Virus record (IMG/VR): IMGVR_UViG_3300024343_000039
From: a virus
Length of the DNA: 38,361 bases
Strand: one strand, 5' to 3'
Under the pieces are notes generated by a model. It was not told where the DNA came from and did no database searches. It was given only the letters and a program-made list of their open reading frames with translations. A program made the position numbers and the translations under genes. Shown here in pieces: positions 1 through 38,361 of this stretch. Each line of letters opens with the position of its first letter. The first letter of the stretch is position 1.

Positions 1-127
1 CATGCCATAAAACTCCTTGTCTATAGCCAGCCTGCTTCGCGACCTCATCCACCATCATCTGCTGTGCCTCCACATCACCAGACTCGACAGCTTTCATGTA
101 GTCGGAGTCTAGTTTCTCTGGCATGAA
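1..127. repeat. Terminal direct repeat, left copy (exact duplicate of 38235..38361)
   Basis: The string catgccataaaactcc...ctctggcatgaa is read identically at both ends of the window. The repeat falls in the middle of a coding frame. Confidence 0.95.
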
Positions 128-3100
128 CCTCTTCTGAGCCTCATACATTCCAGCGTGAGTGGTTTCCAATCCTTTTGCCTTGTCCCACAACCAGTGGTGC
201 GTGACATGCGCCCACACATCCCGTGGCACTTTCTGCCCACCTTCTGCAACACCTTGCAATAGACTAATGCTATTGTCGATTCGATTGAACATCTCCTCTC
301 GGACACGCTTGTCGCTAAATGTATCTTTTACCTTTCTCGCTAGATCTGCTTCCTTTGTCTTTAATGTTCCAACATCCGCTTTGCCAGTGAGCCAGAAATT
401 GATTTCAACTGCATCAATTGTCGGGGTGTTTCCAAGACCAAGAAGATGACTAATAAATCCCTTTTTCCCGGTGCTTACTCCATTCAGCAACTGTACAGCA
501 TCCAGCACCTGTTTGCTTTTCCCTTTGCTTTGGTTTAATTGATCAACTACCACGGGAATTTTTGACAGGTTTTTGTCTGAAAACACATTGAATGTTTTAA
601 ACCTATCATCGCCATATGCTTTTCTTACTTGTACCAGACCATCCCAGTCGGAAGCTGATGTAGTTCCAGCTTCTGCATTATCAAGTGCTACTTTACCCTC
701 TGGTGTTCCCAACCAATAAGCCGCAGCCTCCTCTGGTCTAATAGTCTTTTGTCCTGACTTGCCAGTATCAGTGAACAGGTCAGGAGGATTGAAATCAATT
801 CCTACCTTTGCTAGTTTGTCTCGCAATAGATCAACGCTAACAGCACCAGTTCCCTGTGATGCAACGGTCATTGCATACGCCTTCCACACATCTCTTGGGG
901 TCAATGATCCAGAGACCAATTTCTCTCGTTGTTTAGCAATGAAGTCTGCTACTGGAGTTAAATATTCTGGAAATGGGCCTAGTATTTTTGCCGCCATTTT
1001 CCTCGGAATAAAGTTCGTAGAATCCAATTCTTGCAATACCTCTGTTGGTGTTGCTTTTGAACCCTCAGGCATGAACCTCATCTGCGATGATACAGTGACT
1101 TGCTCTGGCTCCATCCACCCGATAGCATCCGCAGGATACGACTCCAGCATCGCCTTGGATGTGATGGGAATCAGCTTCTCATCCATCTCGTTGATCGCAA
1201 ACATCTGCTTGCCGTCTGCCCATCGTCCTTGAGCCTCCTGGGCGTTGGCTACGGGGTTGAGGTCTTCTGGGGAGATGCCCTCTGGCATGAAGCGGGTGGG
1301 GGTCTGCTCACCCTCTGGCATCGCTCGCTGGGCTTCTGGCATGCGGACTTGGCTTACTGCCTCGTAGCTGAACGGCATTGCTGCGTATTCGTCTGGTGAC
1401 ATTGGAATAGCCTTGCTGACGCGATCTGCACGGTAGGTGCGGTAGACATTGTCAGAGCTTTTCACACCATCCTCCAGAAGCATTGGGTTGAGGACAGCTT
1501 GCTCCTTCCTGTTGAGTAGACCAAACATCGTATTGATGAACTTCTTGCGCTCAGTTCCCTCGACCACACCATACTTTTGATTGAAATGCAGAATGCTGTC
1601 CTCTGTAGGACGGTTAAGATGGAAGTCCATCATCGCCTGTACATCTTGCAAAATAGCGTCAATATTTCCGCTGTACAGCTTCTTGCCACGCTTGCTCTGT
1701 GCGCGTTTCTTGATGTTCTCCTGAAGCTTGGTCACGGACATGAGTCCGTACAGGATGTTGCCGTCCTTGGAGATCGTCATCGCTACTGGCACAGCGTCAC
1801 GAATAGCTGCCTTCTGCGGAGCGTAGACCACCTTGCCAGACTTTAGGCGGGTGGTTGCAGGGAAGTTAATCATCACCATGCGCTGACCATCGCCCTGCTT
1901 GATAAGCTTGTTGGTCTGGCGAATCATCCGCTTCTGCTCGTTGTTGAACTTGTGCTTGGCTAACATCTCCGTCAGCACAGCATCTGACAACCAACCGGGT
2001 TGCAGCTCGCCCTCGTCGTCCACATACGCCTCACCCTTCTCTGGGACATAGTTGGACTCTCGACGCTTACGCATTGCCTCCACAGCGGTCAGACCAGCCA
2101 TTGCCCGGTCGATGTCCACCGATTTGTCAATGAAGACTGGTCGCCCGTCCTTGAGGATTGGCTTGTCGTTCTCATCCACTTGGATGAACGGGTGCATCAA
2201 CTCCATGTCGATTGCGTTAGCGGGATCGAACATGAGCGGTGCGCCAGAACCTTCCTTGTCGCTGATAAGCGGTTCAAACTGCCCCGGCATCACGCCAGAA
2301 CTGCGCCTGTTCATCTCACGGAACATCTTGTTGGCAATTGGGTTCTGCCTGATACCCTCCGCTCCCAAGATTCCATTGCCAGTAACCCACGCACCATCCT
2401 TGTCGATCATGCCACCGCTCTTGATGTGGAGGTCACGCAGGACGGGAATCTTAGGCAGTACAGTCTCCAGCACCGATCCAAGCTTTTTGCGAACTTCACC
2501 ACGGGCGGCAAGCGCACCAAGCTCACCAGTCTCTGCCATTGTCGCGTACTGGTCTGCGTGCTGGTCGATGAAGTATTCGACAGCAATCTTGTCGAGTGGG
2601 TACTCAACTCCAATTTCAGCATCGGTCATACCAGAGTCGCGGAGCCGCTTGTAGTAACCCTCCTTAAACTGGTTGAATTCTGGGTCAAGGTTTCCATCCT
2701 TTGACCTAAATAAACCGCCAACCGAGTTAGTCTTGGTATCACCCAAGAAAAGGGCTGCGATACCACCCTCCATGTTGTTCTTGATTAGCGTGTGGTGAAG
2801 CGTTTCGTGTGCCACCAATGCCTTTAGAGGGTTGTTGGAGTTGATGTTGATATTGGCGGTATTTGTGTTGATGTCGTAACCGCTGGTTCCAGAGTCAATA
2901 AAATTGTAGTTTAGAGTCGGGTTGGCAATGGAGTAAGTTGCCATCGACCTGCGAACCCCCGGAGGCAATGCCTCGTACAATGCCTTCTGTTTGGTGTCAG
3001 TTAGGTTGCGCCTGAAGTTAATCTCATCACCGATAGCAAGCTCGCGCATGCGCTTCTTGGTTCCCATGAACGCTCCACCACCTGCTGCAAATGATCCACC

Positions 3101-5167
3101 AATAACCAGTGATTCAGCCGCCGCACGGGTCATGGTTTCAGGGCGCATGTCAGCACCATCCGAAAGCCACTCAAACATGAGGTCTACGGGATACGCTGCG
3201 GCTATACCACGACCAGTTCTGCGGATGATGTCAGATGTCGCACCACCAAGCTCAAAGATATTAAATGTGTGGGCAATACCACGACCAAGAGATCCCGGTG
3301 CTGTATGTCTGTTAACACGCTTCCAGAATGGCATCTGTCCACGCGCATTTTCCATCTCCTTGCCAACATAGCGTAAAATCTTGCCGTACTCGGAGAGAAA
3401 CTTGCCAGTCTTGAGTGCAGCACCAGTGATGCCAATAGCACCAACCACTGGATTGCCTGCAAGTCCCACAATACCAGAGGCTCCAAGTGCTGCGTTGTAA
3501 GCCTGATCAAGACCACGATCCTTTAGATAATTAGTCACAGCATCATCAACCTTGGTGAGGGTATCACCAGTGCGTTCTAGAATGGAGCTAAAAGCCCTTG
3601 CTGGGGCGGATTGAATCCTGCGCCCAAGTTCTGTGGTCTGCATGACCTTCTGGGCATATCCCTCTGGGATGCGAGTAGCCAAGCTGTTGCGCTTTGCGGT
3701 CAACTCCTCCAGCGTACTCATTGCGGTTGGCATGGCGGCACGAACCTCGTCGGCACTAGCCGTGATTTTCCTTGCCTTATCCAGCACCTCGTTGGCTTGC
3801 ACCATAAGCTCTGGGTTTGCAGCAGACCTCGCCGAAATGTTCTGGAAGAGTTGCTGGTATCGTGGAACAAACAATGCCTCCTTCTTTAGAACTGCATTTC
3901 CAGCCTGCACAACAGCTTGAACATCTGCCAATGCAGATTCTGTTTTTGCCACACTCCCAAGTATTTTTTGTGCTCCAAGCTCCAAGCGTGATGCCAATGG
4001 AACAGACCCTGCTACCTTGAATGCAACACTTGCTGGGATAAGATTGATTGGATCAAATGCAAGTTCAGAAAAGGCTCCTACACCAGCATATCTCTTGTTA
4101 AATGCCTCTTCTCCAAGTGTGTTCTTAGCCTCTTGTGCCATGTTAACCGCGCCATCAAGACCAAGCACTGTCTCAGCAATCTGACCAACCTCAAAACTTT
4201 GAATGTCTCGATTCTGTTTCCATTGCCTTTGACGAGCGGCATACAAATCTCGTTCAGCCTCTGCGTCTTGTTGTTTCAGTGCCTCAACACCTTGGGTGTA
4301 CATTGGGACACCACCCGGCCCAACCATAGCAACATCTCCCTGTTGAAGTGTATCTGCAAGCGCAGCATATCCGACATCAGCTAGTCTTCCAATGTTAGCG
4401 AAATTCGTTGTGATTTTCTCAATGGCAGCAAGTTGATTTGCTTGAACTTCAGCTTGTAGCTTTTTACCTTCAGGTGTTCCAGTAAGCACATCAATTGCAC
4501 CCTTGACGCTCATGGCTTTTCCAGCTGTCTTGAAGTAGTCTCTAAATCCTCCAATTGCATCTGCCATAAAACCACCAGCAGCCTCAAGTTGCTCATCCCA
4601 AGTGGCACTTGGACGAATTACACCATCCTTCCACAAGACCTCAAACGCATCAAGGTTGGTTTCGTTCTCAAGGTCACGCTCGGACATTGAATACGCCTGA
4701 CCCTTTTTGGTCATCGTCCCGTCTTCGTTAAAAAGCCCGGACTCCTTTAGGTTGAAGAAAAGCTCTCCGCGAGGTGTGGCGTTGCCCTCGGCATCCACAA
4801 ACCCAATTGCCTTAAACTTGTTTCTGTCCAGAGGTTGAGAGAACAACTCGTTAGCGTTGCGATAGATCGTTCCGTCCTGCATCCGAAGTGCATCAACCTC
4901 AACGCGCCTAGCCTCGGCTTGAGGGTCAATAGATACCATGTCGGCAGGCTCCTGTTGCCTTAACTGTTCATATGCCCCTACAATGTCTGGAGCTTGTGCC
5001 TCCTCACCAACGGCAATTGGTTGGTTATACTCTTCCTGAAGAGTGTCGCTTACCTCAAGCTCGGTCTGACCAAGTGTTCTTGTAACATCAGAAAATAAAA
5101 GATCAATTCCGCTTTTTGCGTTTTTGTAAAATTCTGGCTTGTCTTCTTCTCGTACATTGATGGACAT
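1..5167 (-). CDS. Giant polyvalent virion/ejection protein, 5' part (codons 1-1722 of about 2401; open at the window edge, continues at 38234)
   Basis: Hand translation of the minus strand from ATG 5167 (MSINVREEDKPEFYKNAKSG...) has no stop down to base 1. It is missing from the ORF track only because it has no stop inside the window. All plus-strand ORFs here look like antisense shadows. Confidence 0.85.
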   Translation of the reverse strand, partial: MSINVREEDKPEFYKNAKSGIDLLFSDVTRTLGQTELEVSDTLQEEYNQPIAVGEEAQAPDIVGAYEQLRQQEPADMVSIDPQAEARRVEVDALRMQDGTIYRNANELFSQPLDRNKFKAIGFVDAEGNATPRGELFFNLKESGLFNEDGTMTKKGQAYSMSERDLENETNLDAFEVLWKDGVIRPSATWDEQLEAAGGFMADAIGGFRDYFKTAGKAMSVKGAIDVLTGTPEGKKLQAEVQANQLAAIEKITTNFANIGRLADVGYAALADTLQQGDVAMVGPGGVPMYTQGVEALKQQDAEAERDLYAARQRQWKQNRDIQSFEVGQIAETVLGLDGAVNMAQEAKNTLGEEAFNKRYAGVGAFSELAFDPINLIPASVAFKVAGSVPLASRLELGAQKILGSVAKTESALADVQAVVQAGNAVLKKEALFVPRYQQLFQNISARSAANPELMVQANEVLDKARKITASADEVRAAMPTAMSTLEELTAKRNSLATRIPEGYAQKVMQTTELGRRIQSAPARAFSSILERTGDTLTKVDDAVTNYLKDRGLDQAYNAALGASGIVGLAGNPVVGAIGITGAALKTGKFLSEYGKILRYVGKEMENARGQMPFWKRVNRHTAPGSLGRGIAHTFNIFELGGATSDIIRRTGRGIAAAYPVDLMFEWLSDGADMRPETMTRAAAESLVIGGSFAAGGGAFMGTKKRMRELAIGDEINFRRNLTDTKQKALYEALPPGVRRSMATYSIANPTLNYNFIDSGTSGYDINTNTANININSNNPLKALVAHETLHHTLIKNNMEGGIAALFLGDTKTNSVGGLFRSKDGNLDPEFNQFKEGYYKRLRDSGMTDAEIGVEYPLDKIAVEYFIDQHADQYATMAETGELGALAARGEVRKKLGSVLETVLPKIPVLRDLHIKSGGMIDKDGAWVTGNGILGAEGIRQNPIANKMFREMNRRSSGVMPGQFEPLISDKEGSGAPLMFDPANAIDMELMHPFIQVDENDKPILKDGRPVFIDKSVDIDRAMAGLTAVEAMRKRRESNYVPEKGEAYVDDEGELQPGWLSDAVLTEMLAKHKFNNEQKRMIRQTNKLIKQGDGQRMVMINFPATTRLKSGKVVYAPQKAAIRDAVPVAMTISKDGNILYGLMSVTKLQENIKKRAQSKRGKKLYSGNIDAILQDVQAMMDFHLNRPTEDSILHFNQKYGVVEGTERKKFINTMFGLLNRKEQAVLNPMLLEDGVKSSDNVYRTYRADRVSKAIPMSPDEYAAMPFSYEAVSQVRMPEAQRAMPEGEQTPTRFMPEGISPEDLNPVANAQEAQGRWADGKQMFAINEMDEKLIPITSKAMLESYPADAIGWMEPEQVTVSSQMRFMPEGSKATPTEVLQELDSTNFIPRKMAAKILGPFPEYLTPVADFIAKQREKLVSGSLTPRDVWKAYAMTVASQGTGAVSVDLLRDKLAKVGIDFNPPDLFTDTGKSGQKTIRPEEAAAYWLGTPEGKVALDNAEAGTTSASDWDGLVQVRKAYGDDRFKTFNVFSDKNLSKIPVVVDQLNQSKGKSKQVLDAVQLLNGVSTGKKGFISHLLGLGNTPTIDAVEINFWLTGKADVGTLKTKEADLARKVKDTFSDKRVREEMFNRIDNSISLLQGVAEGGQKVPRDVWAHVTHHWLWDKAKGLETTHAGMYEAQKRFMPEKLDSDYMKAVESGDVEAQQMMVDEVAKQAGYRQGVLWH
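2795..2809 (-). other. HExxH zinc-metallopeptidase motif (ALVAHETLHHTLI) inside the giant ORF
   Basis: The minus-strand codons CAC GAA ACG CTT CAC lie in the giant ORF frame. Only the short motif is seen. Confidence 0.4.
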
Positions 5168-6103: not shown

Positions 6104-6125
6104 ATTTTATGGTTATTAAATTAAA

Positions 6126-6563: not shown

Positions 6564-6567
6564 AATT

Positions 6568-12371: not shown

Positions 12372-12540
12372 AACACTAGATATGGTGGTGGTGCTCGACC
12401 CTCGCGTGCGTGTTGACGATTCTTTCGCGGAAAGTGCGAACGATTCCCAGCCCTCTGTCCCTTGATTCCTGTCCCAAATCCCTACTTCGCACCAGAATGC
12501 CCTGTATGCTCTTTGCCCTATCATATGGAGTCAGCACCCA

Positions 12541-13864: not shown

Positions 13865-13875
13865 TGTTCTGTTGG

Positions 13876-14835: not shown

Positions 14836-14932
14836 TTGTGTGGCATTTCGGGCAGCTAGGTGACGAACGGAATTCTGAGATTGCTTTCGGAATTCCGCAG
14901 GTCGCGCAGATGCGCCAGTGTATTTGTGTCAT
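14711..14932 (-). CDS. Zinc-ribbon-like small protein, 73 aa (C-terminal half doubtful)
   Basis: N-terminus CATCG...CPKC. The C-terminal half (RKRVDPHHTQGSVLPQAQGREAREDTSPHTGDRPA) is low-complexity and overlaps the better-looking 59-aa frame. Confidence 0.4.
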   Translation of the reverse strand: MTQIHWRICATCGIPKAISEFRSSPSCPKCHTNATRTNRKRVDPHHTQGSVLPQAQGREAREDTSPHTGDRPA

Positions 14933-15363
14933 GGATAATTTCTAGAGTCGTTGTCGTGATCGGGTGAGGTGAATGGGTCTGGATCGTGCGGCCAAGTGGC
15001 GATTCGTTTTAGTCGTTCGTTCTCTGACCTTAGCTCTCGGCACACGCTCGAAAGACGATATTGCTCGCGTGCTTTGTGAAGCGCGTCTTGCAAAAACGAA
15101 TTGCTGTTCAAAAGCCCATCGATTTCAATGTATAGTTCCTTGACATGTTTCTGTGCCTCATCCCGTTCAGTAGCGAGTTGCCTTTGCAGTTTATCACGCT
15201 CGACGATCAACGCATTCTCACGCTGTTGCGTCTCACGCAGGATGCGGCACAGGCTTGTTACACGAATATGTTCTGACGCTGGTCGTCCGCAGCAGCCACA
15301 CTCGTAGTCGGTGTTGGCTACCCAGTCCTGCAAGCAGGTTGGGCATTCGTTGTGGTCGCTCAT
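14929..15363 (-). CDS. Cys-rich N-terminus plus coiled-coil protein, 144 aa
   Basis: CPTC...CGCCG followed by a heptad-like charged region; ATGA-type overlaps on both sides. Confidence 0.55.
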   Translation of the reverse strand: MSDHNECPTCLQDWVANTDYECGCCGRPASEHIRVTSLCRILRETQQRENALIVERDKLQRQLATERDEAQKHVKELYIEIDGLLNSNSFLQDALHKAREQYRLSSVCRELRSENERLKRIATWPHDPDPFTSPDHDNDSRNYP

Positions 15364-15542
15364 TCTTCCACCTCCTCGTCGAAAGAGAAGATTAAATCAA
15401 GCTCTAGCCAGATGCCGTGATTGATGCGCTCGGCAAGCAGGTCTTCGTCGGGTGTATCTGTATACTTGTGGGCGCGATGGTAGCCATACGAGATGCCATC
15501 GTCGATAGCACGCTCAAGCAGTCTTCTTATGTTCGGTTTCAT
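15360..15542 (-). CDS. Hypothetical protein, 60 aa
   Basis: ATG preceded by the CCAACAGAACAAAACA leader. Confidence 0.55.
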   Translation of the reverse strand: MKPNIRRLLERAIDDGISYGYHRAHKYTDTPDEDLLAERINHGIWLELDLIFSFDEEVEE

Positions 15543-15651
15543 TGTTTTGTTCTGTTGGTTGTGGTTGTGGTTTGCGGAATATGTCGTCGTAGTTCTGACC
15601 GTACACGGTCGGGTCCACGGGCCTTGGTGTGTCTCCTTTTCCTGCGCTCAT
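15514..15651 (-). CDS. Possible small ORF, 45 aa (MSAGKGDTPRPVDPTVYGQNYDDIF...)
   Basis: Internal ATG of a listed ORF, positioned right after the stop of the upstream gene (TAACATG). Confidence 0.3.
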   Translation of the reverse strand: MSAGKGDTPRPVDPTVYGQNYDDIFRKPQPQPTEQNNETEHKKTA

Positions 15652-15652
15652 G

Positions 15653-15934
15653 TTAGTGGGTGAGTTCGTAGAGTACGATGATTGCCGCGACGAAGATGCC
15701 GCCAAGCAGTGCCGCGAGTGCCATCGCAAGCCATAGTGGTGGTTCTGGGAGTGGCAGGGGAGCGGGGAGCAGGTGGATGACACCAGCACCGTCCCTTGGG
15801 TCTGATGCATCTGGTGGTAGCACCCAGCCGTTGCCGTCAGGGGTGATAAATGTGCCACCCTTCCAGACTCCTTTGGAGGAGTCTAAGCCAAGAGCAGTAT
15901 GACCGCAGTAGTAGGCGAATGTGTTTGGTTTCAT
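15653..15934 (-). CDS. C-terminally membrane-anchored protein, 93 aa
   Basis: C-terminal hydrophobic stretch LWLAMALAALLGGIFVAAIIVLY. Confidence 0.55.
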   Translation of the reverse strand: MKPNTFAYYCGHTALGLDSSKGVWKGGTFITPDGNGWVLPPDASDPRDGAGVIHLLPAPLPLPEPPLWLAMALAALLGGIFVAAIIVLYELTH

Positions 15935-16149
15935 TAGTAAGAGATTTCAACTCCTTTCCATTCAAGCTTGTCGATGACCTGAGAGACCACAAGGTCACGG
16001 TCGATATTCTCGTCGTAGTGCAACTCCATGACTGCATCGCTGATGCGAGCGATGACGTTGTACGCTGTGTAGTCTGCGCTGTGGTTGATGCCTTTATAGG
16101 CAGCAATGCACAGGTCGATGATTTTCTGTTCTGTTTTGTTTGGTTTCAT
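15934..16149 (-). CDS. Hypothetical protein, 71 aa from ATG 16149
   Basis: Start moved to MKPNKTEQK, which follows an AC-rich leader; the upstream extension overlaps the previous gene. Confidence 0.5.
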   Translation of the reverse strand: MKPNKTEQKIIDLCIAAYKGINHSADYTAYNVIARISDAVMELHYDENIDRDLVVSQVIDKLEWKGVEISY

Positions 16150-16168
16150 GTGTGTGGTTGGTTGATAG

Positions 16169-16879
16169 TTATGCTTTGATTGCTGGCTGGGTAAGTTCAA
16201 AAAGACTCTCGTATGCTTTAGCATAAGCCTTGCTGTTGCGGCGACCACTCAGCTTGGCTACTTTATCAATGACAATGTCCGCTGCCGATTCGGAAATCTT
16301 GCAACCATTACGAATCTGAGAAACGATGCTGTCTACAAACTCATTGCGGCCATCTCCAATGTATTCCCACTGGTGGCTACCAGTCTGAACATGCTGTGGG
16401 TACTCACGATCAAAGATGGCGGCAATGTGAGCGAATGACGCAGCACGCTCCAGTCGTTCTGACTCTTCCGCATCACGGTCGGATTGACGTTCTGCGAGTT
16501 CCCTTGCGACCAATGCCTTGGCAAGCTCAACGGTCTTGGCATACTTGCTGGAGTTCGCTGAGTTCTCGCAAAGCCATACGAGATAGCCAGCATCATGCTC
16601 ACGAACTTCGTGAATAGACTGTCCTGCGTATTTGCCACCTTGCAGAATGCTCCAGTCGATGTCACGACGAGTTCCTATAGGCAGCACTTCAAAGTCTGCG
16701 ACGAGCGGACCAAATGCGCGTGCCTTGGCGATTGCCTCGTCCTTGTCAATGCTCAGGTTGCGGATGTGGTAGTCACGGGTGATTGTCTCTCCTTCAGTAC
16801 CCCATGACTCGTCGAACGAGTGGCGCAGAGTGTAGTAGTTGGACTTGGACCCGGTAGAGATGTAGTAGCGTGAGTTCAT
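16169..16879 (-). CDS. Hypothetical protein with a DUF3820 / ExoX-C-like motif, 236 aa from ATG 16879
   Basis: GGKYAGQSIHEVREHDAGYLVWLCEN resembles the GKYKG...YLxWL motif. The ATG is preceded by CCAACAGAACCA. Confidence 0.45.
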   Translation of the reverse strand: MNSRYYISTGSKSNYYTLRHSFDESWGTEGETITRDYHIRNLSIDKDEAIAKARAFGPLVADFEVLPIGTRRDIDWSILQGGKYAGQSIHEVREHDAGYLVWLCENSANSSKYAKTVELAKALVARELAERQSDRDAEESERLERAASFAHIAAIFDREYPQHVQTGSHQWEYIGDGRNEFVDSIVSQIRNGCKISESAADIVIDKVAKLSGRRNSKAYAKAYESLFELTQPAIKA

Positions 16880-17007
16880 TGGTTCTGTTGGTTGGTGTTG
16901 CCTGCTGGCAACGAGAAGACAATCCACCATGTGTTGAATTTAATCAACAGAAAAATGCAGAATGGATGAAGAATCCTCTGCAACCCGCTTAAACACTAGG
17001 AATTATT

Positions 17008-17394
17008 TTACTCCAATTCGTCGTCGAGACCGGGGTAGGACCACATTGGGGCTGGTTCTGGGACATCTTCAGGCGAAATTCCACGCTCGTCGATGATCAG
17101 TGCTTTGGCAAGGATAGCGTAGTTGACGAGGTCGAGGCAGGCATCCTCCGCAGACTCATTCGGTACAGCTAGCTTGCCATCATTTGCGAACGAGCGCAGG
17201 CGTTGCAACTTGTCCTGCATGCGTAGCAGCAGACCAGTGATAGGATGCAACCCTAGTGACTCACTCGCTTTGAAGTTTGCTAATGCATCGTGTGCATGCT
17301 CACCTCCAGAGTAGTCGTTATTTTTTACATCCATGATTGCCAACGCTTGTCGGCAAGTTTCCGTATGTACTTTCAGTAGTGCTTGTTTGTTCAT
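17008..17394 (-). CDS. DUF1599-like protein (nucleotide-modification-associated domain 1), 128 aa
   Basis: KNNDYSGG...ITGLLLRMQDKLQRLRSF...ESAEDACLDLVNYAILA matches my recollection of the DUF1599 pattern (DYG...R..DKl.Rl...E...D...NYa). Confidence 0.5.
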   Translation of the reverse strand: MNKQALLKVHTETCRQALAIMDVKNNDYSGGEHAHDALANFKASESLGLHPITGLLLRMQDKLQRLRSFANDGKLAVPNESAEDACLDLVNYAILAKALIIDERGISPEDVPEPAPMWSYPGLDDELE

Positions 17395-17548
17395 TTGGTT
17401 TTGTTTTCCATGTTTTATAGTTACTCTCGTCGGCAAAGAAAGGGTCATTCTTCAGCAACCACCGCTCGCACGCTCGGCGCACGTCTAGGAACATCTCCTG
17501 CGGGAGACCATCTTCAGCTAGTGTTGGGTTGCGTACAAACCTAGGCAT
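17318..17548 (-). CDS. Hypothetical protein, 76 aa from ATG 17548
   Basis: ATG preceded by an AC-rich leader. Its 3' end overlaps the DUF1599-like gene start by 77 nt. Confidence 0.4.
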   Translation of the reverse strand: MPRFVRNPTLAEDGLPQEMFLDVRRACERWLLKNDPFFADESNYKTWKTKPNEQTSTTESTYGNLPTSVGNHGCKK

Positions 17549-17619
17549 AGTCGTTGTCGTTTGGGTAGAACATAACAAGACAGACAACTGCCATGATCAC
17601 CAGAAAAGATGTAATGTCC

Positions 17620-17853
17620 TCATGCATTGAGTAGTCGGTATTTGACCTTTGATAAGTCCTCACAAGCTTTCACCAACTCAGACGCATCGTGTGCGTTAGT
17701 GAGTTCAGCTAGCTCTTCCTGCAAACACTCCAAGCAGACTCGTCCACCTCTGGCTGCACGCTCGCAGTCGTCACGCTCGCACGTGCTGTACGTGCTAGGC
17801 CACAGTGGGAATTGATACTGAATGTCGTAGATGATTTGTTCTATTGATCTCAT
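17620..17853 (-). CDS. Hypothetical Cys-containing protein, 77 aa
   Basis: CERDDCERAARGGRVCLEC; ATGA overlap with the upstream gene. Confidence 0.5.
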   Translation of the reverse strand: MRSIEQIIYDIQYQFPLWPSTYSTCERDDCERAARGGRVCLECLQEELAELTNAHDASELVKACEDLSKVKYRLLNA

Positions 17854-18170
17854 GATAGGTCTAGCACTTTGAGTTCGTATCTGTTGGTCTTATCGTTCTT
17901 CTTCCACCCGTGGATCAGAATCTTCCACCCAGCCCTGCGTAAGCAGTCTAGGTATGGTGACTCGGACATCTTCTTGGCTCGCGCAGACACATTGTTCCAA
18001 GATGTAGTCTGGACCGCAATGGTCTCGCTCCCAGCGCATGCCAGCACGTCCACGAATCCAAACAGGTCTTTGCGGCGGCGTGAGAACTGACACCAATGCT
18101 CGACCACCTGAACGCAGTCTGTGGCCTTGCGTAGTTCCTTTAGTGTAAGCTGTGTGGGTGAGGTTTTCAT
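17850..18170 (-). CDS. Possible PD-(D/E)XK-fold nuclease / resolvase-like protein, 106 aa
   Basis: DLFGFVDVLA...ETIAVQTTS resembles the D...(D/E)xK core strands, but the Lys is not evident. Confidence 0.3.
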   Translation of the reverse strand: MKTSPTQLTLKELRKATDCVQVVEHWCQFSRRRKDLFGFVDVLACAGSETIAVQTTSWNNVSARAKKMSESPYLDCLRRAGWKILIHGWKKNDKTNRYELKVLDLS

Positions 18171-18514
18171 TTGAGCTTCTTGATCACGAATGTAGCCTTC
18201 TCGCGGAATACCTCGTCGTTACGGGTAAGGAAGTCTGCACGCTCCTTGGCTGCGATGACGGTGGTATGGTTCTTCCTCTGGAAGATGCGAGCGGTATCGG
18301 CAAGCGTGTGGTCCTCGCTAACCAGTGCCATTGCTAGCGTCCTAGCCTGCGATGGTACAGGCTGCTTGTCGTAGGCGAATATCTGAGCTGGATGCACTCC
18401 AAATGTATCAGCAACTGCGCTGATGATTCGCATGGCTTTATTCTTGGACATGCGGTGACCCAACTCCGCGCATAGCTCGTCGGTGGTAAGGTCGGAAACG
18501 TGTGTGACTTTCAT
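18167..18514 (-). CDS. Orphan DnaA domain-IV-like DNA-binding protein, 115 aa
   Basis: SQARTLAMALVSEDHTLADTARIFQRKNHTTVIAAKER parallels E. coli DnaA [39 protein letters not shown]. There is no AAA+ domain. Confidence 0.65.
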   Translation of the reverse strand: MKVTHVSDLTTDELCAELGHRMSKNKAMRIISAVADTFGVHPAQIFAYDKQPVPSQARTLAMALVSEDHTLADTARIFQRKNHTTVIAAKERADFLTRNDEVFREKATFVIKKLK

Positions 18515-18523
18515 TAGAAAATG

Positions 18524-18554
18524 TTTGCCCTGCGCGCAACCCTCGGAGCCAAGG
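18524..18554 (-). promoter_or_regulatory. Conserved 31-nt leader element, copy A, 9 nt upstream of ATG 18514
   Basis: On the minus strand: CCTTGGCTCCGAGGGTT-N6-AGGGCAAA. The same element with the same spacing occurs at 18869-18899. Confidence 0.5.
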
Positions 18555-18586
18555 GACAGAACCCACCTGCACGCTGGTGGTGATTG

Positions 18587-18859
18587 TTATGCGTTATTAG
18601 CTACTAGGTCAATAGCAGAGCAGCGGACGATGATGCCGTTGCCCTTAGCTGGAGCGAACTTGTCTACCCGATGTTCTAGGTTGCGGATGTATGCTACTTC
18701 GTTTGCATTACTAGGTATGACCCTATAGAAGTCACCCTTGATTTGCCTTGAATTGAAGACTGGTGTTCCGTAGCGCATATCCTTCTCCTCACGAATGATA
18801 TCGGGATTTTTGACTTTGGTTTTCGCGCCAAATTTAAGTGTACGTGTGATGTAGTTCAT
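18587..18859 (-). CDS. Hypothetical protein, 90 aa, flanked by the 31-nt element
   Basis: ATG-initiated ORF with no recognisable motif. Confidence 0.55.
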   Translation of the reverse strand: MNYITRTLKFGAKTKVKNPDIIREEKDMRYGTPVFNSRQIKGDFYRVIPSNANEVAYIRNLEHRVDKFAPAKGNGIIVRCSAIDLVANNA

Positions 18860-18868
18860 GGAAAGTGA

Positions 18869-18899
18869 TTTGCCCTATGGTGAACCCTCGGAGCCAAGG
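18869..18899 (-). promoter_or_regulatory. Conserved 31-nt leader element, copy B, 9 nt upstream of ATG 18859
   Basis: 25 of 31 positions are identical to copy A (blocks of 8 and 17 are perfect; the central hexamer differs). Confidence 0.5.
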
Positions 18900-18934
18900 A
18901 ATGCGATGATCATGTCACCAATCATGAATGGGAA

Positions 18935-19162
18935 TTAGAAAGGAATCTCGTCGGTCTCTTCCTTAGCCGCAGGTTTAGCCGCAGCCTTGTCGTCGATCTT
19001 CAAGCTAATGAACTTGCCAGACTTGCCCTCGCGGAGCCATCCAGCTAGTTGATACTCCTTGCCGTCAACGTCGATCTTGCCCTTGTATGCAGGACGCTTT
19101 GGGTTGTCGCCCACATCGTTCTTAAACAGAATGCCCGTATTTGTGTTGTCGTAGTTACTCAT
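18935..19162 (-). CDS. Mini ssDNA-binding-like protein with an SSB-type acidic C-terminal tip, 75 aa
   Basis: C-terminus EETDEIPF compared with bacterial SSB DDDIPF. The core PAYKGKIDVDGKEYQLAGWLREGKSGKFISLKID is a DUF736-like beta pattern. Sits in the recombination module. Confidence 0.45.
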   Translation of the reverse strand: MSNYDNTNTGILFKNDVGDNPKRPAYKGKIDVDGKEYQLAGWLREGKSGKFISLKIDDKAAAKPAAKEETDEIPF

Positions 19163-19165
19163 GGT

Positions 19166-19969
19166 TTACTTTTGTTTTGTTGCCCATTTGGGGGGGGAGA
19201 TTGTTTGGATGCCATCAATTGCAGGTGGGAATGTTTTCGTCTGCACGCACTGGTTCCACTTGGCTAGTGCCTGCATGTAACCTTGCCTTCCAAGCTTAAT
19301 GAATTCCTCGTCGAGCAGGACGGTTGCCATCTCGAAAGGACGATCAACTGCCATGAAGACGATGATGAACTCATTGCGTTCTTCGCCAGATGCCATGTTC
19401 CACAGGTCGAGGTAAAGTGCAGCCTGCCAGTGGTAGCCTCTGTTGATGATGAGCGAGGTCAGTTGCTCCAAGCTCTCAATGCTCTGGGTGGTTTTTAGGT
19501 CAATCAGCGACAAGCCCTCGGACGGCACAAGGTCGATCATGCACTTGCAGGATGTGCCGAAAACCTCGGCAAACACAGCAACCTCAGTGCGGTAGTCTGG
19601 AAGATGCTCGATTGCAGGATTTTTGCGAAACGCATAACCCGCTGACTCTGCGCGGATGTACTCGTCTGCTGTAATCACCTTGAGGTTAGTCATGCTGTCG
19701 CGCCACTCACGTGCTTCCTTGGTGCGAAAGTCGTTATATGGTGACACGATGTATTCCACTTCCAGCTTGTGCGGCTCAAGGCAGGCAGTGTGGTACAGAG
19801 TGCCAGTACGCATGGCTGGGGTGCTTTCCCTGTCCTTGCTTTTGTTGTACCATCTGTACGGACTCTGGTTAAAGTCCCAGAGCAGGGATTTGCTCACGGG
19901 ACCAGAAAGGTCTCTGGGTGTTGCGGTCTTGGTGTAGTATTCCTCGCCAAGGTTTTGAATGATTTTCAT
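19166..19969 (-). CDS. PD-(D/E)XK exonuclease (DUF3799 / exonuclease-VIII-like), 267 aa
   Basis: GTLYHTACLEP...MIDLVP...LIDLKTTQS...YHWQAALY matches the PDDEXK exonuclease pattern. Close to the ERF gene, separated from it by one 63-aa ORF. Confidence 0.65.
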   Translation of the reverse strand: MKIIQNLGEEYYTKTATPRDLSGPVSKSLLWDFNQSPYRWYNKSKDRESTPAMRTGTLYHTACLEPHKLEVEYIVSPYNDFRTKEAREWRDSMTNLKVITADEYIRAESAGYAFRKNPAIEHLPDYRTEVAVFAEVFGTSCKCMIDLVPSEGLSLIDLKTTQSIESLEQLTSLIINRGYHWQAALYLDLWNMASGEERNEFIIVFMAVDRPFEMATVLLDEEFIKLGRQGYMQALAKWNQCVQTKTFPPAIDGIQTISPPKWATKQK

Positions 19970-19970
19970 A

Positions 19971-20162
19971 TTAGCGTCCTGAGTGTGTTCTGAATATTTG
20001 TCCGTTGCGTTTTACCTGTCCGTAGCCGTTGTAGCCAATGACTCGGCGGCGGGAGGTGTCTACTGGTTTGGGTTGCACTTGAGCCTCGACCAACTCCTTG
20101 CGTCTTTGCTCGGCGGCAGCAGCCTCGGCGGTAAGTTGTGCGTAGTAAGCATTTGCGTTCAT
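19971..20162 (-). CDS. Hypothetical protein, 63 aa
   Basis: ORF tightly packed between the ERF and exonuclease genes. Confidence 0.5.
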   Translation of the reverse strand: MNANAYYAQLTAEAAAAEQRRKELVEAQVQPKPVDTSRRRVIGYNGYGQVKRNGQIFRTHSGR

Positions 20163-20740
20163 GCAGCACCCCCTAGCTTCTTGGCCTTGGCATCTAGGCT
20201 TGCGTTAGCTTTGGTCACAGCAGGCTTGGTGAGTTCGCTGAGGGACTTGACTGCGAGGTACTTCAGAAACGCCTCCTCGTCCACTCCAAGCCCCTCCATA
20301 CGGGTCTTGAGCGATGCGATGTCATCCTTGCTCGCTGGAGCCGCAGTACGGGCGTGTGCAGCAGATTGACCATCGTCGTCCTCTTGGGCGATGCCAGTCA
20401 TCGCAGCGAGAGCATAGCGACGAAGATAGGTGGTTGACGCTCCCACACCCTGCGCGTCAGACTTGGCTGGGACGCATGATGCAGTGCTGCTGATATATCC
20501 ACCCTCGGCGTGGAGGATGGTTGTGGTGACACTCACTAGACTGCCGTCATAGGAGGTGGACTGGACGATAGACAGACCATGCGAGGCGAACACAGGTCGG
20601 ACTGTGTTGAGTACCTCAGCGAGGTCGGCATAGCGATTCTTAAAATGTGGGTTGATGCTACCCTTGGTAGCGTTCTCCACTTCTGACTGTGCTTGTGCTA
20701 GAGCTTTGTTCAGCCCTGCGGTTGTGTGTTCTAGGTTCAT
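20159..20740 (-). CDS. erf: ERF-family single-strand annealing protein, 193 aa
   Basis: NPHFKNRYADLAEVLNTVRPVFASHGLSIVQ is the ERF core motif. The ATG is preceded by CCAATAGAACAAACCA. Confidence 0.75.
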   Translation of the reverse strand: MNLEHTTAGLNKALAQAQSEVENATKGSINPHFKNRYADLAEVLNTVRPVFASHGLSIVQSTSYDGSLVSVTTTILHAEGGYISSTASCVPAKSDAQGVGASTTYLRRYALAAMTGIAQEDDDGQSAAHARTAAPASKDDIASLKTRMEGLGVDEEAFLKYLAVKSLSELTKPAVTKANASLDAKAKKLGGAA

Positions 20741-20808
20741 TGGTTTGTTCTATTGGTTGCTGGTATTGTGACCAGTTGTTGATAGCAAACAGCAATTTAG
20801 ACTTGCGG

Positions 20809-21030
20809 TCAATATTTTTTTTGCAGGGAGATGTAACCAGTTGCATTCCAATGTCTTACGACTTGCTTTGGATGCCAGTCTGCCATGAATGATCGTGGGC
20901 TTTTTGTATCACACACGCAAGTAATGTAGGTTACACCCGGCTCGTAACGCAACTCGTTATAGGGCTTCTTGCAGCTACACTTACGCATGAGGCGGCGTGC
21001 CTCGTCGAACTCCCAGTCCTCGTCGGTCAT
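20809..21030 (-). CDS. Cys-rich small protein, 73 aa from ATG 21030 (possibly Lar-like)
   Basis: CSCKK...CVCD...HWNA pattern. The start was reset to the ATG that overlaps the upstream stop as ATGA. Confidence 0.35.
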   Translation of the reverse strand: MTDEDWEFDEARRLMRKCSCKKPYNELRYEPGVTYITCVCDTKSPRSFMADWHPKQVVRHWNATGYISLQKKY

Positions 21031-21182
21031 CGGTTGCTCTCTGCCCATATCAACCCTGCATTGGCGGCGGCGTACGATAGGTACACCAACGCCCACGGTG
21101 CGTCACCTTTCAGTGCGTAGCTTGCCCCGGCTGCCGTGTAGAGTAACATAGCAGCTAGGACAATTATTTGCTCAAATGCCAT
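21027..21182 (-). CDS. Unlisted small membrane protein, 51 aa (MAFEQIIVLAAMLLYTAAGASYALKGDAPWALVYLSYAAANAGLIWAESNR)
   Basis: Hand translation gives two hydrophobic helices; ATGA overlap with the next gene. Confidence 0.45.
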   Translation of the reverse strand: MAFEQIIVLAAMLLYTAAGASYALKGDAPWALVYLSYAAANAGLIWAESNR

Positions 21183-21187
21183 ACATT

Positions 21188-21409
21188 CTAGGCAATGGAG
21201 TAGAAGAAGTTTCTCGTCGTTTTACGGACGTTAATCTTCCCTGCCTTGACTGCGTCATTCAGCATGCGCCTTGAGGCATGGATGCCCATCTCAATCTTGT
21301 CAGCGTACTCTTGCACGGTGAACTCGTCGTCTCGTTGCTTCTCTGCTGCTCCAGTAAGGAGTATGGCTTGTTCTAATGCGCTTAACGCTACTTCTGCTTT
21401 TGTTTTCAT
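21188..21409 (-). CDS. Small HTH-like DNA-binding protein, 73 aa from ATG 21409
   Basis: FTVQEYADKIEMGIHASRRMLNDAVKAGKI is a helix-turn-helix-like pattern. The ATG is preceded by AACCAAACCAAACAAACCA. Confidence 0.4.
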   Translation of the reverse strand: MKTKAEVALSALEQAILLTGAAEKQRDDEFTVQEYADKIEMGIHASRRMLNDAVKAGKINVRKTTRNFFYSIA

Positions 21410-21434
21410 TGGTTTGTTTGGTTTGGTTTTGTTA

Positions 21435-22166
21435 TCAGAGAATTCCATGAGGGCTGACCCATACGCCATCCTCGTTGGTCGCGTGCCATGCCTGCCACGA
21501 ACCCGTCTTGGTGTTGATGAGTCCAAACAGGAATCCCTGCCTCCATCCATGCTTGGCTTGGTATCGGTCCGCATAGGTCATCTGGTCGATGTCAGCAAGA
21601 CATCCAACTGAGAATGCCATGCCGCCATCCAAATGGCGAGCGTGATAGGTGGCTGGGGCGTGTACGTGACCGTGGATTACACTACCCCACCCGTCGAAAT
21701 GTGCCTTGGCTGCGTGAATGGAGGACTTGAACCCGTGAATCAACTTTGGTCCACCCTCTGGAAGCCGCAGGTAGCGTGATACGTGATAGGGGCAGGTCTT
21801 TATTTTTAGCGTCTTGAACTCGTCCTCAAGCATGCGCCAGTATTCGGTGCAACGCTCGCGCAGCATGCCGTCAGCGCAGTGGGTAGAGTGCAGGGCTAGC
21901 CTATCATCGTGATTCCCGATTGTGAGGTAATGGGGCTTGTACTCCTGAAGGAACTCCATGCCCATACGGACATCGTCGGCAATGCCGTCTGCCCGCTCCT
22001 CAATAGAGGCTCCGCGCCTAAGGGGGCTGAGGTCGATGAAATCCCCCAAATGCACCCTGTAGTCGGGCTTCCACGTCTTCATGAAGGCTAGTGCCTTCTT
22101 CTTTGCCTTTTCACAGATTAGGTTGCCGTGATTATCCGCGACTACCATGAACTTTTTGTAGGTCAT
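21435..22166 (-). CDS. Calcineurin-like metallophosphoesterase, 243 aa from ATG 22166
   Basis: The motifs VVADNHG, GDFIDL, GNHDD and GHVH occur in the canonical order. Confidence 0.8.
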   Translation of the reverse strand: MTYKKFMVVADNHGNLICEKAKKKALAFMKTWKPDYRVHLGDFIDLSPLRRGASIEERADGIADDVRMGMEFLQEYKPHYLTIGNHDDRLALHSTHCADGMLRERCTEYWRMLEDEFKTLKIKTCPYHVSRYLRLPEGGPKLIHGFKSSIHAAKAHFDGWGSVIHGHVHAPATYHARHLDGGMAFSVGCLADIDQMTYADRYQAKHGWRQGFLFGLINTKTGSWQAWHATNEDGVWVSPHGIL

Positions 22167-22459
22167 TGTTTTGTTGGTTTGGTTTGCAGTTTGTCCCAAG
22201 CAGGGAAAAACAAGTGGTCCAAGCACCTGACAACACCCTCTTCAACTTCCTCGAAAGGTTTGCAGTGACCGATGCCTCCGATAGCGAAAGCAGCGTGCAT
22301 CATTTCGTGTCTGAGTGTGTCAACCATGTCCTTGGTATTCCCCTTCCTAAGTGCTATCGTGAGATCGTCAAGCGAAAAACTACCGAAATCCTCAAGATTC
22401 TCGACAACGGTGATCTTCACGCGCAGCCCGCCGATTGGGATATGCTTTGGAAAGTTCAT
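22163..22459 (-). CDS. Minimal HExxH (zincin-like) protein, 98 aa from ATG 22459
   Basis: TLRHEMMHAAFAIGG. ATGA overlaps on both sides tie it to the endolysin and the phosphoesterase. Confidence 0.4.
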   Translation of the reverse strand: MNFPKHIPIGGLRVKITVVENLEDFGSFSLDDLTIALRKGNTKDMVDTLRHEMMHAAFAIGGIGHCKPFEEVEEGVVRCLDHLFFPAWDKLQTKPTKQ

Positions 22460-36195: not shown

Positions 36196-38361
36196 TCACT
36201 TCAGATTCTTTAGCTTTTCGATCTCGTTTGCAAGAGCATTTTCTTCGCTTTTTACCTCTTCGATCTGACTTTTGATCGTTTTTTCTGCGCTTTTATTTTC
36301 AGCCGTGGCAATTGACGCAGTCAAACTCTGGATTTTTTTCTGTCTCGCTGACAATTTCGACTTGAGCTTTTGAATTTCCTTTTGACGCAACTCTTTGGCT
36401 TTCTGCTTCTTGAGCCTCAATTCTCTATTTTCAGCAATTTTGCTAAGTTTGGCCTTCGTGTATTTTTCCACCTTCAATGGAATTTCTGCGTACTTTTTCA
36501 TGGCTCCAAGAACAGTTTCTTCGGAACCTTCTTTGACGCTCGCTTTGGGGTGTTTTGACCTATAGTCCGGGAATAACTCTTCTGGCTTTAATGTAGAAGA
36601 TGCAAGGAAGTTGTCTGCATTATCTGGGCCAAGCATCATCCAGTCAAACGCTTCATGTTCAACAAAATCAGGATTAGCTCTCAATGCATCTCTAACTTGT
36701 TTTTCTTGTGGAGACATTGCTGCTTCCTCTTTAGGATCATTGCCAAAGTATACAGCGAAAATATCTTTGTTTTTAGATAATTGAACCGCTCCAACAATAT
36801 CCATATTCTCACCTCCCTTGAAATCTTCTGTTTTACGAAGAATATCGGATGGGTTAAATGATCCAGCGGTAATTCCAATAAGCCCCTTGATTGCAGCACC
36901 TCTGGACTGGAATGTATTTCCAATGTTGTCCATGATTGCTAAAGAAGATGATTTCTCACTTAATTTTTTGAACGCGTACTCATGTTCTGTATTTTTATTC
37001 AAATAATCGCGCAACCTTTGTTTGGAATTATCAAGTGCTTTTTGAGTGCCGTTATTGTTATCAAGTCTTGTTTGTGCTGTTTTGATTTTTGAAATCAATT
37101 GAGCTATTTCAGCGTCAATTCCAGTCCAAGACAATGCATCTCTATCGGCAAACAAGCTTTGAATGTTAGCTTTGATTTTTTGAGATTCGATATCAGAAAG
37201 ACTTTCATCTTTTAATTTGTTTTGTTGCTGTTGAATCTTAACTGAAATTGAGCTTTTCTGTTGCGCTGTAATTGCGGCCTGCATAGCAACTGACACTACT
37301 CTCTGATCGTACTCTGATAGTTTTGCCTTATCCCAAGCTGCTTGCATTGTTCTGGCAATTCGTTTATTAGATGCGTGAGCAATTGGATCCATGATGTGGA
37401 TCAAGGCATATTCCGCATTGTCATTAAACCATCTATTTTTTGTTCCAGTAACAAATGTTGATGTCATGTTTGCCCAAATAGCTTTGTATTTCTTTCCGTC
37501 TGGGCCTACAACTGATACTTGATTTGACCGCAAGAATGGGTGCATTGGCCCACCCATATCCCCACCAGTTGCTCTCATCCTGTCAGCTTCTAGGATAATA
37601 ACATTTTTTCCAGCAAGCGTTTTGCGTAAATCTTTAAACTCCGGCCTCACGAGATATGCTGGGTCATAGTTAAAATACATTCTTTCCCCATTTGGGTGCT
37701 GGATATAAACCTTGGCTGGTTTACTATAATCAAATTCTCCTTCATTTGCTTCAAAGTTAATTACAGTTGAGTCAATGTCTGGAATGGTGTCAGTTCGTGA
37801 TAGTGGTTTTTTTGTTGGCACATCACCCTCAGGCATATACCGAATATCCTTACTCCCCACATCAAACCGCTTGCTCAACGGGATGACTTTGCCAGAGTCG
37901 TCGCGGGTGATTGGGTCTGCGGATTTGATTTGGTTGGAATCAAATACAATAAATTCTTGTTTCCCCGCATTAGTTTGCGGGGTTCCAATTACTGAATCAT
38001 ACCCTTGTTTTTGAATCTCTTTTTTGCGTGCTGGTGTAATTGCAGAATAAGAATAATCACCAGCATCAAGAATCAATGGATTATCCATTTTAAGATAAGC
38101 ACCTAAAACATTACTACCCATTGCACTAGCAATGTTTTTATCTGGTGAGAAATAATGACCTACACTACCTTCCATCCAAGGTAGTCTATCTCCTTTAGTT
38201 TCATCAAAAACCGTAAATTTTTTACCTCTTGATCCATGCCATAAAACTCCTTGTCTATAGCCAGCCTGCTTCGCGACCTCATCCACCATCATCTGCTGTG
38301 CCTCCACATCACCAGACTCGACAGCTTTCATGTAGTCGGAGTCTAGTTTCTCTGGCATGAA
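36196..38361 (-). CDS. Giant polyvalent virion/ejection protein, 3' part (listed as a 720-aa ORF; in frame with 1..5167 across the terminal overlap)
   Basis: ATG 38358 is the same base as ATG 124, which is an internal Met of the 5167 frame (5167-124 = 3 x 1681). The frame is still open at 38361. TGA stop at 36196-36198. Lys/Glu-rich coiled-coil-like C-terminus. Confidence 0.85.
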   Translation of the reverse strand, partial: FMPEKLDSDYMKAVESGDVEAQQMMVDEVAKQAGYRQGVLWHGSRGKKFTVFDETKGDRLPWMEGSVGHYFSPDKNIASAMGSNVLGAYLKMDNPLILDAGDYSYSAITPARKKEIQKQGYDSVIGTPQTNAGKQEFIVFDSNQIKSADPITRDDSGKVIPLSKRFDVGSKDIRYMPEGDVPTKKPLSRTDTIPDIDSTVINFEANEGEFDYSKPAKVYIQHPNGERMYFNYDPAYLVRPEFKDLRKTLAGKNVIILEADRMRATGGDMGGPMHPFLRSNQVSVVGPDGKKYKAIWANMTSTFVTGTKNRWFNDNAEYALIHIMDPIAHASNKRIARTMQAAWDKAKLSEYDQRVVSVAMQAAITAQQKSSISVKIQQQQNKLKDESLSDIESQKIKANIQSLFADRDALSWTGIDAEIAQLISKIKTAQTRLDNNNGTQKALDNSKQRLRDYLNKNTEHEYAFKKLSEKSSSLAIMDNIGNTFQSRGAAIKGLIGITAGSFNPSDILRKTEDFKGGENMDIVGAVQLSKNKDIFAVYFGNDPKEEAAMSPQEKQVRDALRANPDFVEHEAFDWMMLGPDNADNFLASSTLKPEELFPDYRSKHPKASVKEGSEETVLGAMKKYAEIPLKVEKYTKAKLSKIAENRELRLKKQKAKELRQKEIQKLKSKLSARQKKIQSLTASIATAENKSAEKTIKSQIEEVKSEENALANEIEKLKNLK
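37909..38331 (-). other. ADP-ribosyltransferase-like module inside the giant ORF
   Basis: Helical lead-in KAVESGDVEAQQMMVDEVAKQAGY, then VLWHGS...FTVFD...GHYFSPD...AYLKMDNP...GYDSVIG...QEFIVFDSNQIKSA. This gives H / Y / E spacing and the QIKSA ending I recall from ART domains of phage and plasmid polyvalent proteins. Confidence 0.5.
38235..38361. repeat. Terminal direct repeat, right copy (exact duplicate of 1..127)
   Basis: Same 127-nt string as bases 1-127. Consistent with the overlap left when a circular or terminally redundant assembly is linearised. Confidence 0.95.

Follow-up and report, generated by a model that had tools for sequence, protein, structure and literature searches.

The locus examined here raises the question of whether a giant phage protein carries a genuine ADP-ribosyltransferase (ART) and, if so, whether the enzyme could enter the host cell together with the phage DNA. 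The window, by which we mean the entire 38,361-nucleotide (nt) stretch analysed (IMG/VR record IMGVR_UViG_3300024343_000039), encodes on its minus strand an open reading frame (ORF) of 2401 amino acids (aa), in which an initial annotation, made from the letters alone, had recognized an ART-like module. Our analyses assign this domain, with near certainty, to the ART-PolyVal family (Pfam PF18760). The explanation that we favour, and that we consider moderately probable as a whole, is that an ART-PolyVal cassette is delivered with the DNA and modifies a host component.

The search against ART families with hidden Markov models (HMMs), which had been proposed as a check of the module, returned ART-PolyVal above its gathering cut-off of 31.2 bits (60.7 bits with the isolated segment and 48.6 bits with the whole protein; E = 3.4e-16). 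The match covers profile positions 8–134 of 140, and ART-PolyVal is the sole Pfam family found across the 2401 residues. The Pfam PARP family (PF00644) gave 12.5 bits, below its cut-off of 26.7 and through the HGS motif only, and no Pfam match of the Alt/VIP2 type was obtained at E ≤ 1. When 1.84 billion representative proteins were searched exhaustively with HMMER (E ≤ 1e-3), 4111 homologues of the ART segment were found. The best 150 of these homologues are mostly proteins of 2000–6000 aa, many of them matched in several separate stretches.

Structure prediction, the second proposed check, likewise pointed to ARTs of the H-Y-E type. The AlphaFold2 model of the segment, built from a 30-sequence alignment, reached a predicted local distance difference test score (pLDDT) of 88.1 and a predicted template modelling score (pTM) of 0.83. 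A Foldseek comparison with the PDB matched it to tankyrase-1/2, PARP4, PARP1, exotoxin A, and diphtheria toxin (best E-value, 1.7e-5); the match probability was 1.00 for the first 31 structures, with modest template modelling scores (TM-scores, 0.35–0.43). Rank 13 was 6KYF (E = 4e-4, target TM-score 0.49), the anti-CRISPR ADP-ribosyltransferase AcrIF11 described in a 2025 paper (PMC12421852). Among viral predicted structures, the top matches were "ART-PolyVal-like domain-containing proteins" of uncultured tailed phages (E-values down to 1.8e-15), with query TM-scores of 0.67–0.78 for four of the five best ART-PolyVal matches. Sequence searches of the PDB with the segment and with the 30-sequence profile gave no match. 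A match to the cyanophage A4 pre-ejectosome (9k3a_B) was rejected as meaningless, the root-mean-square deviation being 17 Å and its paper describing no ART. On sequence and model together, residues 1682–1855 constitute an ART-PolyVal cassette composed of a two-helix lead-in, a PARP/diphtheria-toxin-like core, and a conserved tail (Table 1).

It might be argued that the ART likeness arose by chance, or that the ORF is an end-joining artefact of the assembly, because it crosses the ends of the window. Beyond this crossing nothing speaks for such an explanation, and the Pfam E-value, the exact 127-nt overlap, and the independent contigs described below refute it, leaving it a negligible probability. 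Window positions 1–127 are an exact direct repeat of positions 38235–38361, so that the contig, with 38,234 unique bases, was assembled as a circle. The ORF runs on the minus strand from its ATG at position 5167 (5167–5165) through position 1 to position 38234 and onward to a stop at 36196. The junction of the window ends is spanned by independent contigs (P0006, P0007, and L005–L008), which shows that the 2401-aa ORF is not an artefact. We conclude that the contig is a circular assembly of a complete phage genome of 38,234 bp; because of this circularity, the 2401-aa gene escapes ORF lists made on the linear window. All the peptides quoted in the initial annotation (MPEKLDSDYMKAVESGDVEAQQMMVDEVAKQAGY, GVLWHGS, FTVFD, GHYFSPD, AYLKMDNPLI, QGYDSVIG, and QEFIVFDSNQIKSADP) were located on the minus strand, and its numbering of the segment within the giant protein, residues 1682–1835, is correct, with MPEKLDSDY starting at residue 1682 (window 38358). 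It had placed the segment at 37909–38331. The lower bound agrees to within one codon with the end of P1830 at 37912 (minus strand), but the upper bound corresponds to a second methionine, M1691, and falls 27 nt short of the M1682 codon (38358–38356).

The putative catalytic residues were examined in an alignment of 67 full-length copies of the ART-PolyVal domain and by comparison with tankyrase-2, whose sequence was verified to be identical to that of the PDB chains. An extended profile alignment, which is credible only together with the fold match, places LWHGS, GHYFS, and QEFIVFD collinearly with LFHGS (H1031), GIYFA (Y1060), and AEYVIYR (E1138) of tankyrase-2, so that the failure of H, Y, and E to align that had been named as grounds for abandoning the module was not observed. 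In the AlphaFold2 model, the corresponding strands are formed by residues 38–43 (LWHGS), 68–71 (HYFS), and 135–138 (EFIV, of which Glu1816 is the first residue) of the segment. Alignment and model thus put H1722, Y1750, and E1816 at the triad positions within the canonical motifs HG[ST], G-x-Y-F-[ST], and E-[FY]-[IV]-V-[FY], and the H-to-E distance of 94 residues agrees with the spacing of about 95 recognized initially. PARP, tankyrase, diphtheria toxin, and exotoxin A accordingly share with the present domain not only the best structural matches but also the collinear HGS, G-x-YF-[AS], and E-[YF]-[IV]-[VI]-[YF] motifs. The domain nevertheless has no significant sequence similarity to these proteins, is not accompanied by PARP helical or regulatory domains, and carries methionine for the second tyrosine.

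The active site also differs from that described for its own family. ART-PolyVal was described as H-Y-D and placed with the Tox-ART-HYD2 clade (Iyer et al. 2017, PMC5512222), whereas the acid here is glutamate, as in 33 of the 67 aligned copies; 10 further copies have an acid at this or the preceding position. The second nicotinamide-stacking aromatic residue is replaced by Met1761, which is shared by the six close relatives, whereas 49 of the 67 family copies have tyrosine or phenylalanine. The present copy shares with ART-PolyVal as described (PMC5512222) the profile, the lead-in helix, the QIKSADP..IPLSxRF tail, the location in a giant multi-module protein, and the adjoining virion genes. 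The cassette was found in six IMG/VR contigs at 82–98% amino-acid identity, and H1722, Y1750, M1761, and E1816 are unchanged in all six. The ratio of nonsynonymous to synonymous substitution rates (dN/dS) in these relatives is 0.11–0.46, the most diverged copy giving 0.11 at a dS of ~1.2, which indicates that the ART module is under purifying selection. We judge it likely that the ART is catalytically competent; most likely it would bind nicotinamide adenine dinucleotide (NAD+) and transfer a single ADP-ribose to a host macromolecule.

The regions flanking the core proved to be family hallmarks, in agreement with the initial impression that the helical lead-in and the QIKSA ending typify such domains. 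In the lead-in, the model helices span residues 3–15 and 18–31 of the segment (pLDDT 89–97), and D6, Y9, A12, G16, D17, V25, A29, A32, and G33 each occur in at least 60 of the 67 copies. The tail follows the family pattern QIKSADP[VI]TxDDxGNVIPLSxRFxxxxxDIR[YF], in which Q, I, K, S, A, P, T, D, G, I, P, L, S, R, and F are each present in 57–67 of the 67 copies. Among 150 representative giant proteins, 232 of 283 lead-ins lead into an ART core, but no such core could be detected immediately before 124 of the 304 tails (P0004 is an example of a non-ART module in that place). From this distribution, the tail appears to be a general element between the modules of polyvalent proteins.

Several observations weigh against an active ART that is delivered with the DNA, and those concerning catalysis are the following. 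The H/Y/E alignment to tankyrase-2 is not significant by sequence alone: the hhalign probability is 3–5%, the local alignment covering the GxYF strand alone (5%) and the extended collinear alignment giving 3%. The canonical diphtheria-like site is H-Y-Y-E (PMC12421852), and with Met1761 in place of the second aromatic residue the full four-residue set is not present here. The full set of histidine, aromatic residue, and acid is absent from 27 of the 67 family copies, and the flanks of the 67 copies are better conserved than the catalytic core, so that some copies may have a non-catalytic role. In the literature searched, largely at the level of titles and abstracts, we found no experimentally characterised ART-PolyVal domain. 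The incomplete copies, the conserved flanks, the methionine, and the occurrence of the tail motif without a detectable ART core would also be expected if the module were a catalytically dead ART-like unit kept for a structural, packaging, or binding role. Such a role is, in our view, quite unlikely for the present copy, because all three triad residues lie in canonical motifs and are unchanged at dS values up to 1.2 with dN/dS of ~0.1, and because the predicted fold is confident.

The remaining counterpoints concern delivery. The conserved N-terminal part of the giant protein, which we call the chassis, shows no match to any known virion or ejection protein, either in profile searches (Pfam, PHROG, and NCBIfam) or by fold. 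Its two most hydrophobic segments, the only candidates for membrane segments, are just moderately so (hydropathy 1.40 and 1.54), which is weak evidence. A host search of 185,579 species-representative genomes found no relative of the chassis.

In spite of these points, we regard delivery of the giant protein in the virion as reasonably probable, by reason of gene position and precedent. On this view, late synthesis of the giant protein would be followed by its packaging into the capsid, where it would serve as an internal or ejection protein, and it would then enter the cell together with the DNA; early in infection the ART would modify a host component, with a protein of defence, transcription, or translation as the most plausible target. 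Packaging in the virion followed by injection has been predicted for polyvalent proteins (PMC5512222, PMC9503650); in podophage phi24B, a polyvalent protein of 2811 aa, gp47, was identified in virions by proteomics (bioRxiv 10.64898/2026.04.10.717836), and podophage ejection proteins carry enzymatic domains (PMC12002296). The giant gene lies 3' of the tail and tail-fibre genes and of three genes without an assigned family; it is itself just upstream of a small ORF and TerS/TerL. This gene order is repeated in relatives of 38.6–39.7 kb. Alternatively, an active ART might not be delivered at all, acting late in the producing cell or being cut off before packaging. The absence of any resemblance between the chassis and known ejection proteins is in line with this possibility, as is DdrB of phage P1, which is processed before packaging (PMC5512222). 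However, the giant gene is co-oriented with and directly beside the tail and terminase genes, it occupies 19% of the genome and is conserved across the lineage, which fits a structural role, and phi24B gp47 was present in virions; we therefore regard non-delivery as rather improbable.

A further alternative accepts the ART fold and concerns its substrate. The enzyme might ADP-ribosylate DNA or RNA, or might only hydrolyse NAD+. The diphtheria/PARP-like relatives include DarT, which acts on DNA (cited in PMC9503650), Tpt1/KptA, which acts on RNA, Arr, which acts on rifamycin, and NADase versions. Met1761 at the second aromatic site could alter the handling of NAD+, and neither the ART model nor the structural matches give an indication of the target. 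Against this alternative, protein modification was predicted by the authors who defined ART-PolyVal (PMC5512222), AcrIF11, structurally the closest characterised example from a phage, modifies the protein Cas8f/Csy1, and depletion of NAD+ at entry would harm the phage's own replication. A non-protein substrate is thus unlikely, although it is the most serious of the alternatives considered here.

The proposed modification of a host protein by the cassette has instructive parallels. AcrIF11 (6KYF) is, like the present ART, a small diphtheria-like ART of a mobile element that was recovered as a structural match; it is a phage and plasmid anti-CRISPR that inactivates the defence protein Cas8f/Csy1 by ADP-ribosylation, and by analogy it illustrates that such an ART can disable one specific defence protein. 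It differs from the present ART in being free-standing, in being expressed after entry, and in its H-F-H-D site, and no sequence similarity between the two was detected. The initial annotation had also invoked a likeness to injected ARTs such as T4 Alt. This part did not hold: Alt belongs to a separate R-S-E clade, Alt/VIP2 (PMC5512222), along with ModA and ModB, whereas the present site is H-Y-E and its best structural matches are in the PARP/diphtheria group. Alt gave neither a sequence match nor a top structural match, and it is not part of a giant multi-module protein. What is shared is the proposed logic of a capsid-carried, injected ART that modifies host proteins, so that the likeness to Alt is a functional analogy only.

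Comparison of orthologous giant proteins revealed cassette exchange of the ART in the variable C-terminal part of a protein that is conserved throughout the lineage. The chassis (residues 1 to ~1290) is 54–87% identical in about 50 orthologous giant proteins (1571–2252 aa) and 25–31% identical in three distant ones; the lineage comprises uncultured phages of ~38–42 kb with an SU10-type capsid protein. The orthologues differ from one another past residue ~1290: about 17 of 55 have an ART, placed at positions between 1273 and 1922, and others carry DUF7178 or PF25735 in the variable part. ART copies that are 94–98% identical occur in giant proteins whose chassis are only 64–87% identical and whose neighbouring modules differ. 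In L009 (6506–10651), the chassis is only 25% identical, yet the ART at the C-terminus reaches 73% identity over the full BLASTP match and 82% in the best tblastn segment, which indicates that the cassette moves between quite distant chassis lineages. In L004, L007, and L008, the ART directly follows the junction at residue 1368, so that module B, absent there, is an insertion in the present genome; module D accompanies the ART in L005 (83% identity) and L007 (48%) and is replaced in L004, L006, and L008.

The breakpoints of similarity (~1368, 1676–1678, and 1860–1865) coincide with a short motif, R[FY]MPE, which begins at residues 1292, 1364, 1680, and 1854 and is present at each boundary between modules of the giant protein. 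In the orthologues the motif recurs in the variable region only, and in the wider family DIR[YF]S stands at the corresponding place. Among the 150 representative giant proteins, R[FY]MPE occurs 34 times in 13 proteins, against a composition-based expectation of 0.12, and its coding DNA is nearly uniform (CGSTTCATGCCAGAG). Judging from this pattern, R[FY]MPE may serve for exchange, for cleavage, or for both. The composition of the cargo fits acquisition from elsewhere: the cargo part of the giant gene has a GC content of 0.39–0.45 (module B, 0.45; ART, 0.42; module D, 0.39) and a GC content at third codon positions (GC3) of ~0.35, compared with a GC content of 0.50 for both the chassis and the genome. 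This evidence of transfer is only suggestive, because low GC3 is also found in parts of the chassis.

Elsewhere in the giant protein, few features could be assigned. Modules B and D gave no family or PDB match and module A no family match, and the ART is the sole recognisable effector domain; that the protein is modular is nevertheless evident from the cassette exchange. For the chassis, the best result from the Pfam, PHROGs, and NCBIfam libraries was a 15.8-bit tape-measure match, and an AlphaFold2 model of residues 600–1270 (pLDDT 59) gave a best Foldseek E-value of 0.29. In comparison with known polyvalent proteins, the chassis has no match to Pfam MPTase, MuF, LPD, or N4 RNAP. It does contain an HExxH..E motif, modelled with low confidence on a helix that follows three strands, which is a possible zincin metallopeptidase site; neither a profile match (including Pfam MPTase) nor a fold match supported a zincin identity. 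With no profile or fold match, the chassis can be called neither a zincin peptidase nor an ejection protein.

The R[FY]MPE junctions may be the points at which the cargo modules are separated from one another, with the HExxH site of the chassis perhaps doing the cutting. An extended and doubtful version of this idea would make the giant protein a cassette-type effector carrier, in which R[FY]MPE serves both as the site of cargo exchange and as the site cleaved by HExxH..E, and the ART and the modules beside it are released as separate enzymes after ejection. The arrangement recalls the polymorphic toxins, in which variable cargo is attached C-terminally to a constant delivery part and a short motif, such as VENN in CdiA or PxxxxDPxGL in Rhs, marks the point of exchange. 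It differs from them in the motif itself, in the phage-virion route, and in the presence of several tandem cargo modules rather than one. If the extended version is true, the R[FY]MPE system would be to phages what the VENN and Rhs demarcation motifs are to polymorphic toxins.

Table 1. Window coordinates of the parts of the giant protein, listed from its N-terminus to its C-terminus (fractions are counts among the 67 aligned family copies).
Feature	Window position	Strand	Basis or conservation
Chassis, shown as residues 1–1270	1358..5167	minus	similarity to orthologues ends at ~1285–1298
HExxH..E motif (H787, E788, H791, E800; AHETLHH...E)	2768..2809	minus	no variation in 35 aligned orthologues (identity down to 26%)
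RFMPE junction, residues 1292–1296, just past the chassis end, preceded by RMPE and AMPE	1280..1294	minus	similarity ends at ~1285–1298
RFMPE junction, residues 1364–1368	1064..1078	minus	ART follows directly in L004, L007, and L008
Module B, residues 1369–1679	131..1063	minus	between module A and the ART in this genome only
RFMPE junction, residues 1680–1684, upstream cassette edge	116..130	minus	similarity starts at 1676–1678
Complete ART cassette (lead-in helices, core, tail), residues 1682 to ~1855–1857	37837..38358	minus	bounded by R[FY]MPE junctions
Lead-in helical hairpin, residues 1684–1712, DxxYxxAVExGDxxxAQxMVDEAAKxAGY	38266..38352	minus	family pattern and model
Pfam PF18760 match, residues 1719–1829	37915..38247	minus	profile score
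His1722 (LWHGS), strand 1	38236..38238, also 2..4	minus	His in 62/67; aligns with tankyrase-2 H1031
Tyr1750 (GHYFS), strand 2	38152..38154	minus	Y 33/67, F 23/67, W 8/67; aligns with tankyrase-2 Y1060
Met1761, second nicotinamide-stacking aromatic position	38119..38121	minus	Y 37/67, F 12/67, M 4/67; aligns with tankyrase-2 Y1071
Glu1816 (QEFIVFD), start of strand 5, putative catalytic acid	37954..37956	minus	Glu 33/67; aligns with tankyrase-2 E1138
Conserved tail, residues 1824–1855: QIKSADPITRDDSGKVIPLSKRFDVGSKDIRY	37837..37932	minus	family alignment
RYMPE junction, residues 1854–1858, downstream cassette edge	37828..37842	minus	similarity ends at 1860–1865
Module D, residues 1859–2401 and stop, basic coiled-coil C-terminus	36196..37827	minus	cassette comparison

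The rest of the genome encodes TerS, TerL, the SU10-type major capsid protein, tail-fibre proteins, and an M15 peptidase, with nearly all genes on one strand; no integrase match was found among the ORFs scanned, and no transfer RNA gene was found. A minus-strand block at 12629–22226 contains the replication and recombination genes (a DnaB-like helicase, a lambda-O-like initiator, ERF, and an exonuclease VIII-like nuclease), together with a metallophosphoesterase and a DUF1599 "nucleotide modification associated" protein. Three co-oriented minus-strand genes (345, 145, and 305 aa; 5186–7605) separate the giant gene from the tail-fibre genes and gave no family match; to judge by position, their products could be additional internal or ejection proteins. 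A 157-aa ORF on the plus strand (11943–12416) occupies the gap between the replication and tail modules; it is the sole sizeable ATG-initiated plus-strand ORF that does not overlap a larger minus-strand ORF, and it gave no Pfam match. The relatives have one or two opposite-strand genes elsewhere in the genome. Searches of 50,697 GenBank phage records, by tblastn with the ART segment, megablast with the head module, and tblastn with the chassis, gave no match, so that the lineage is known from metagenomes only.

Pfam already lists the family, and a description of its architecture dates from 2017; the present locus is therefore not a new kind of system. Specific to it are the Glu/Met variant of the active site, the chassis, which had not been annotated before and contains the invariant HExxH..E motif, and the R[FY]MPE junction as a marker of cassette exchange. 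ART domains are the commonest predicted protein-modifying enzymes in the polyvalent proteins of phages and plasmids, and this copy is a good candidate for the first biochemical test of the family, having the full H-Y-E triad, a confident predicted structure, clear cassette boundaries (residues 1682–1857), and close natural variants for comparison. The lineage itself is a natural experiment, in which the chassis is constant, the cargo differs, and the ART is present in about one-third of the orthologues; with a constant chassis and varied cargo, cargo content could be related to the defence repertoires of the hosts.

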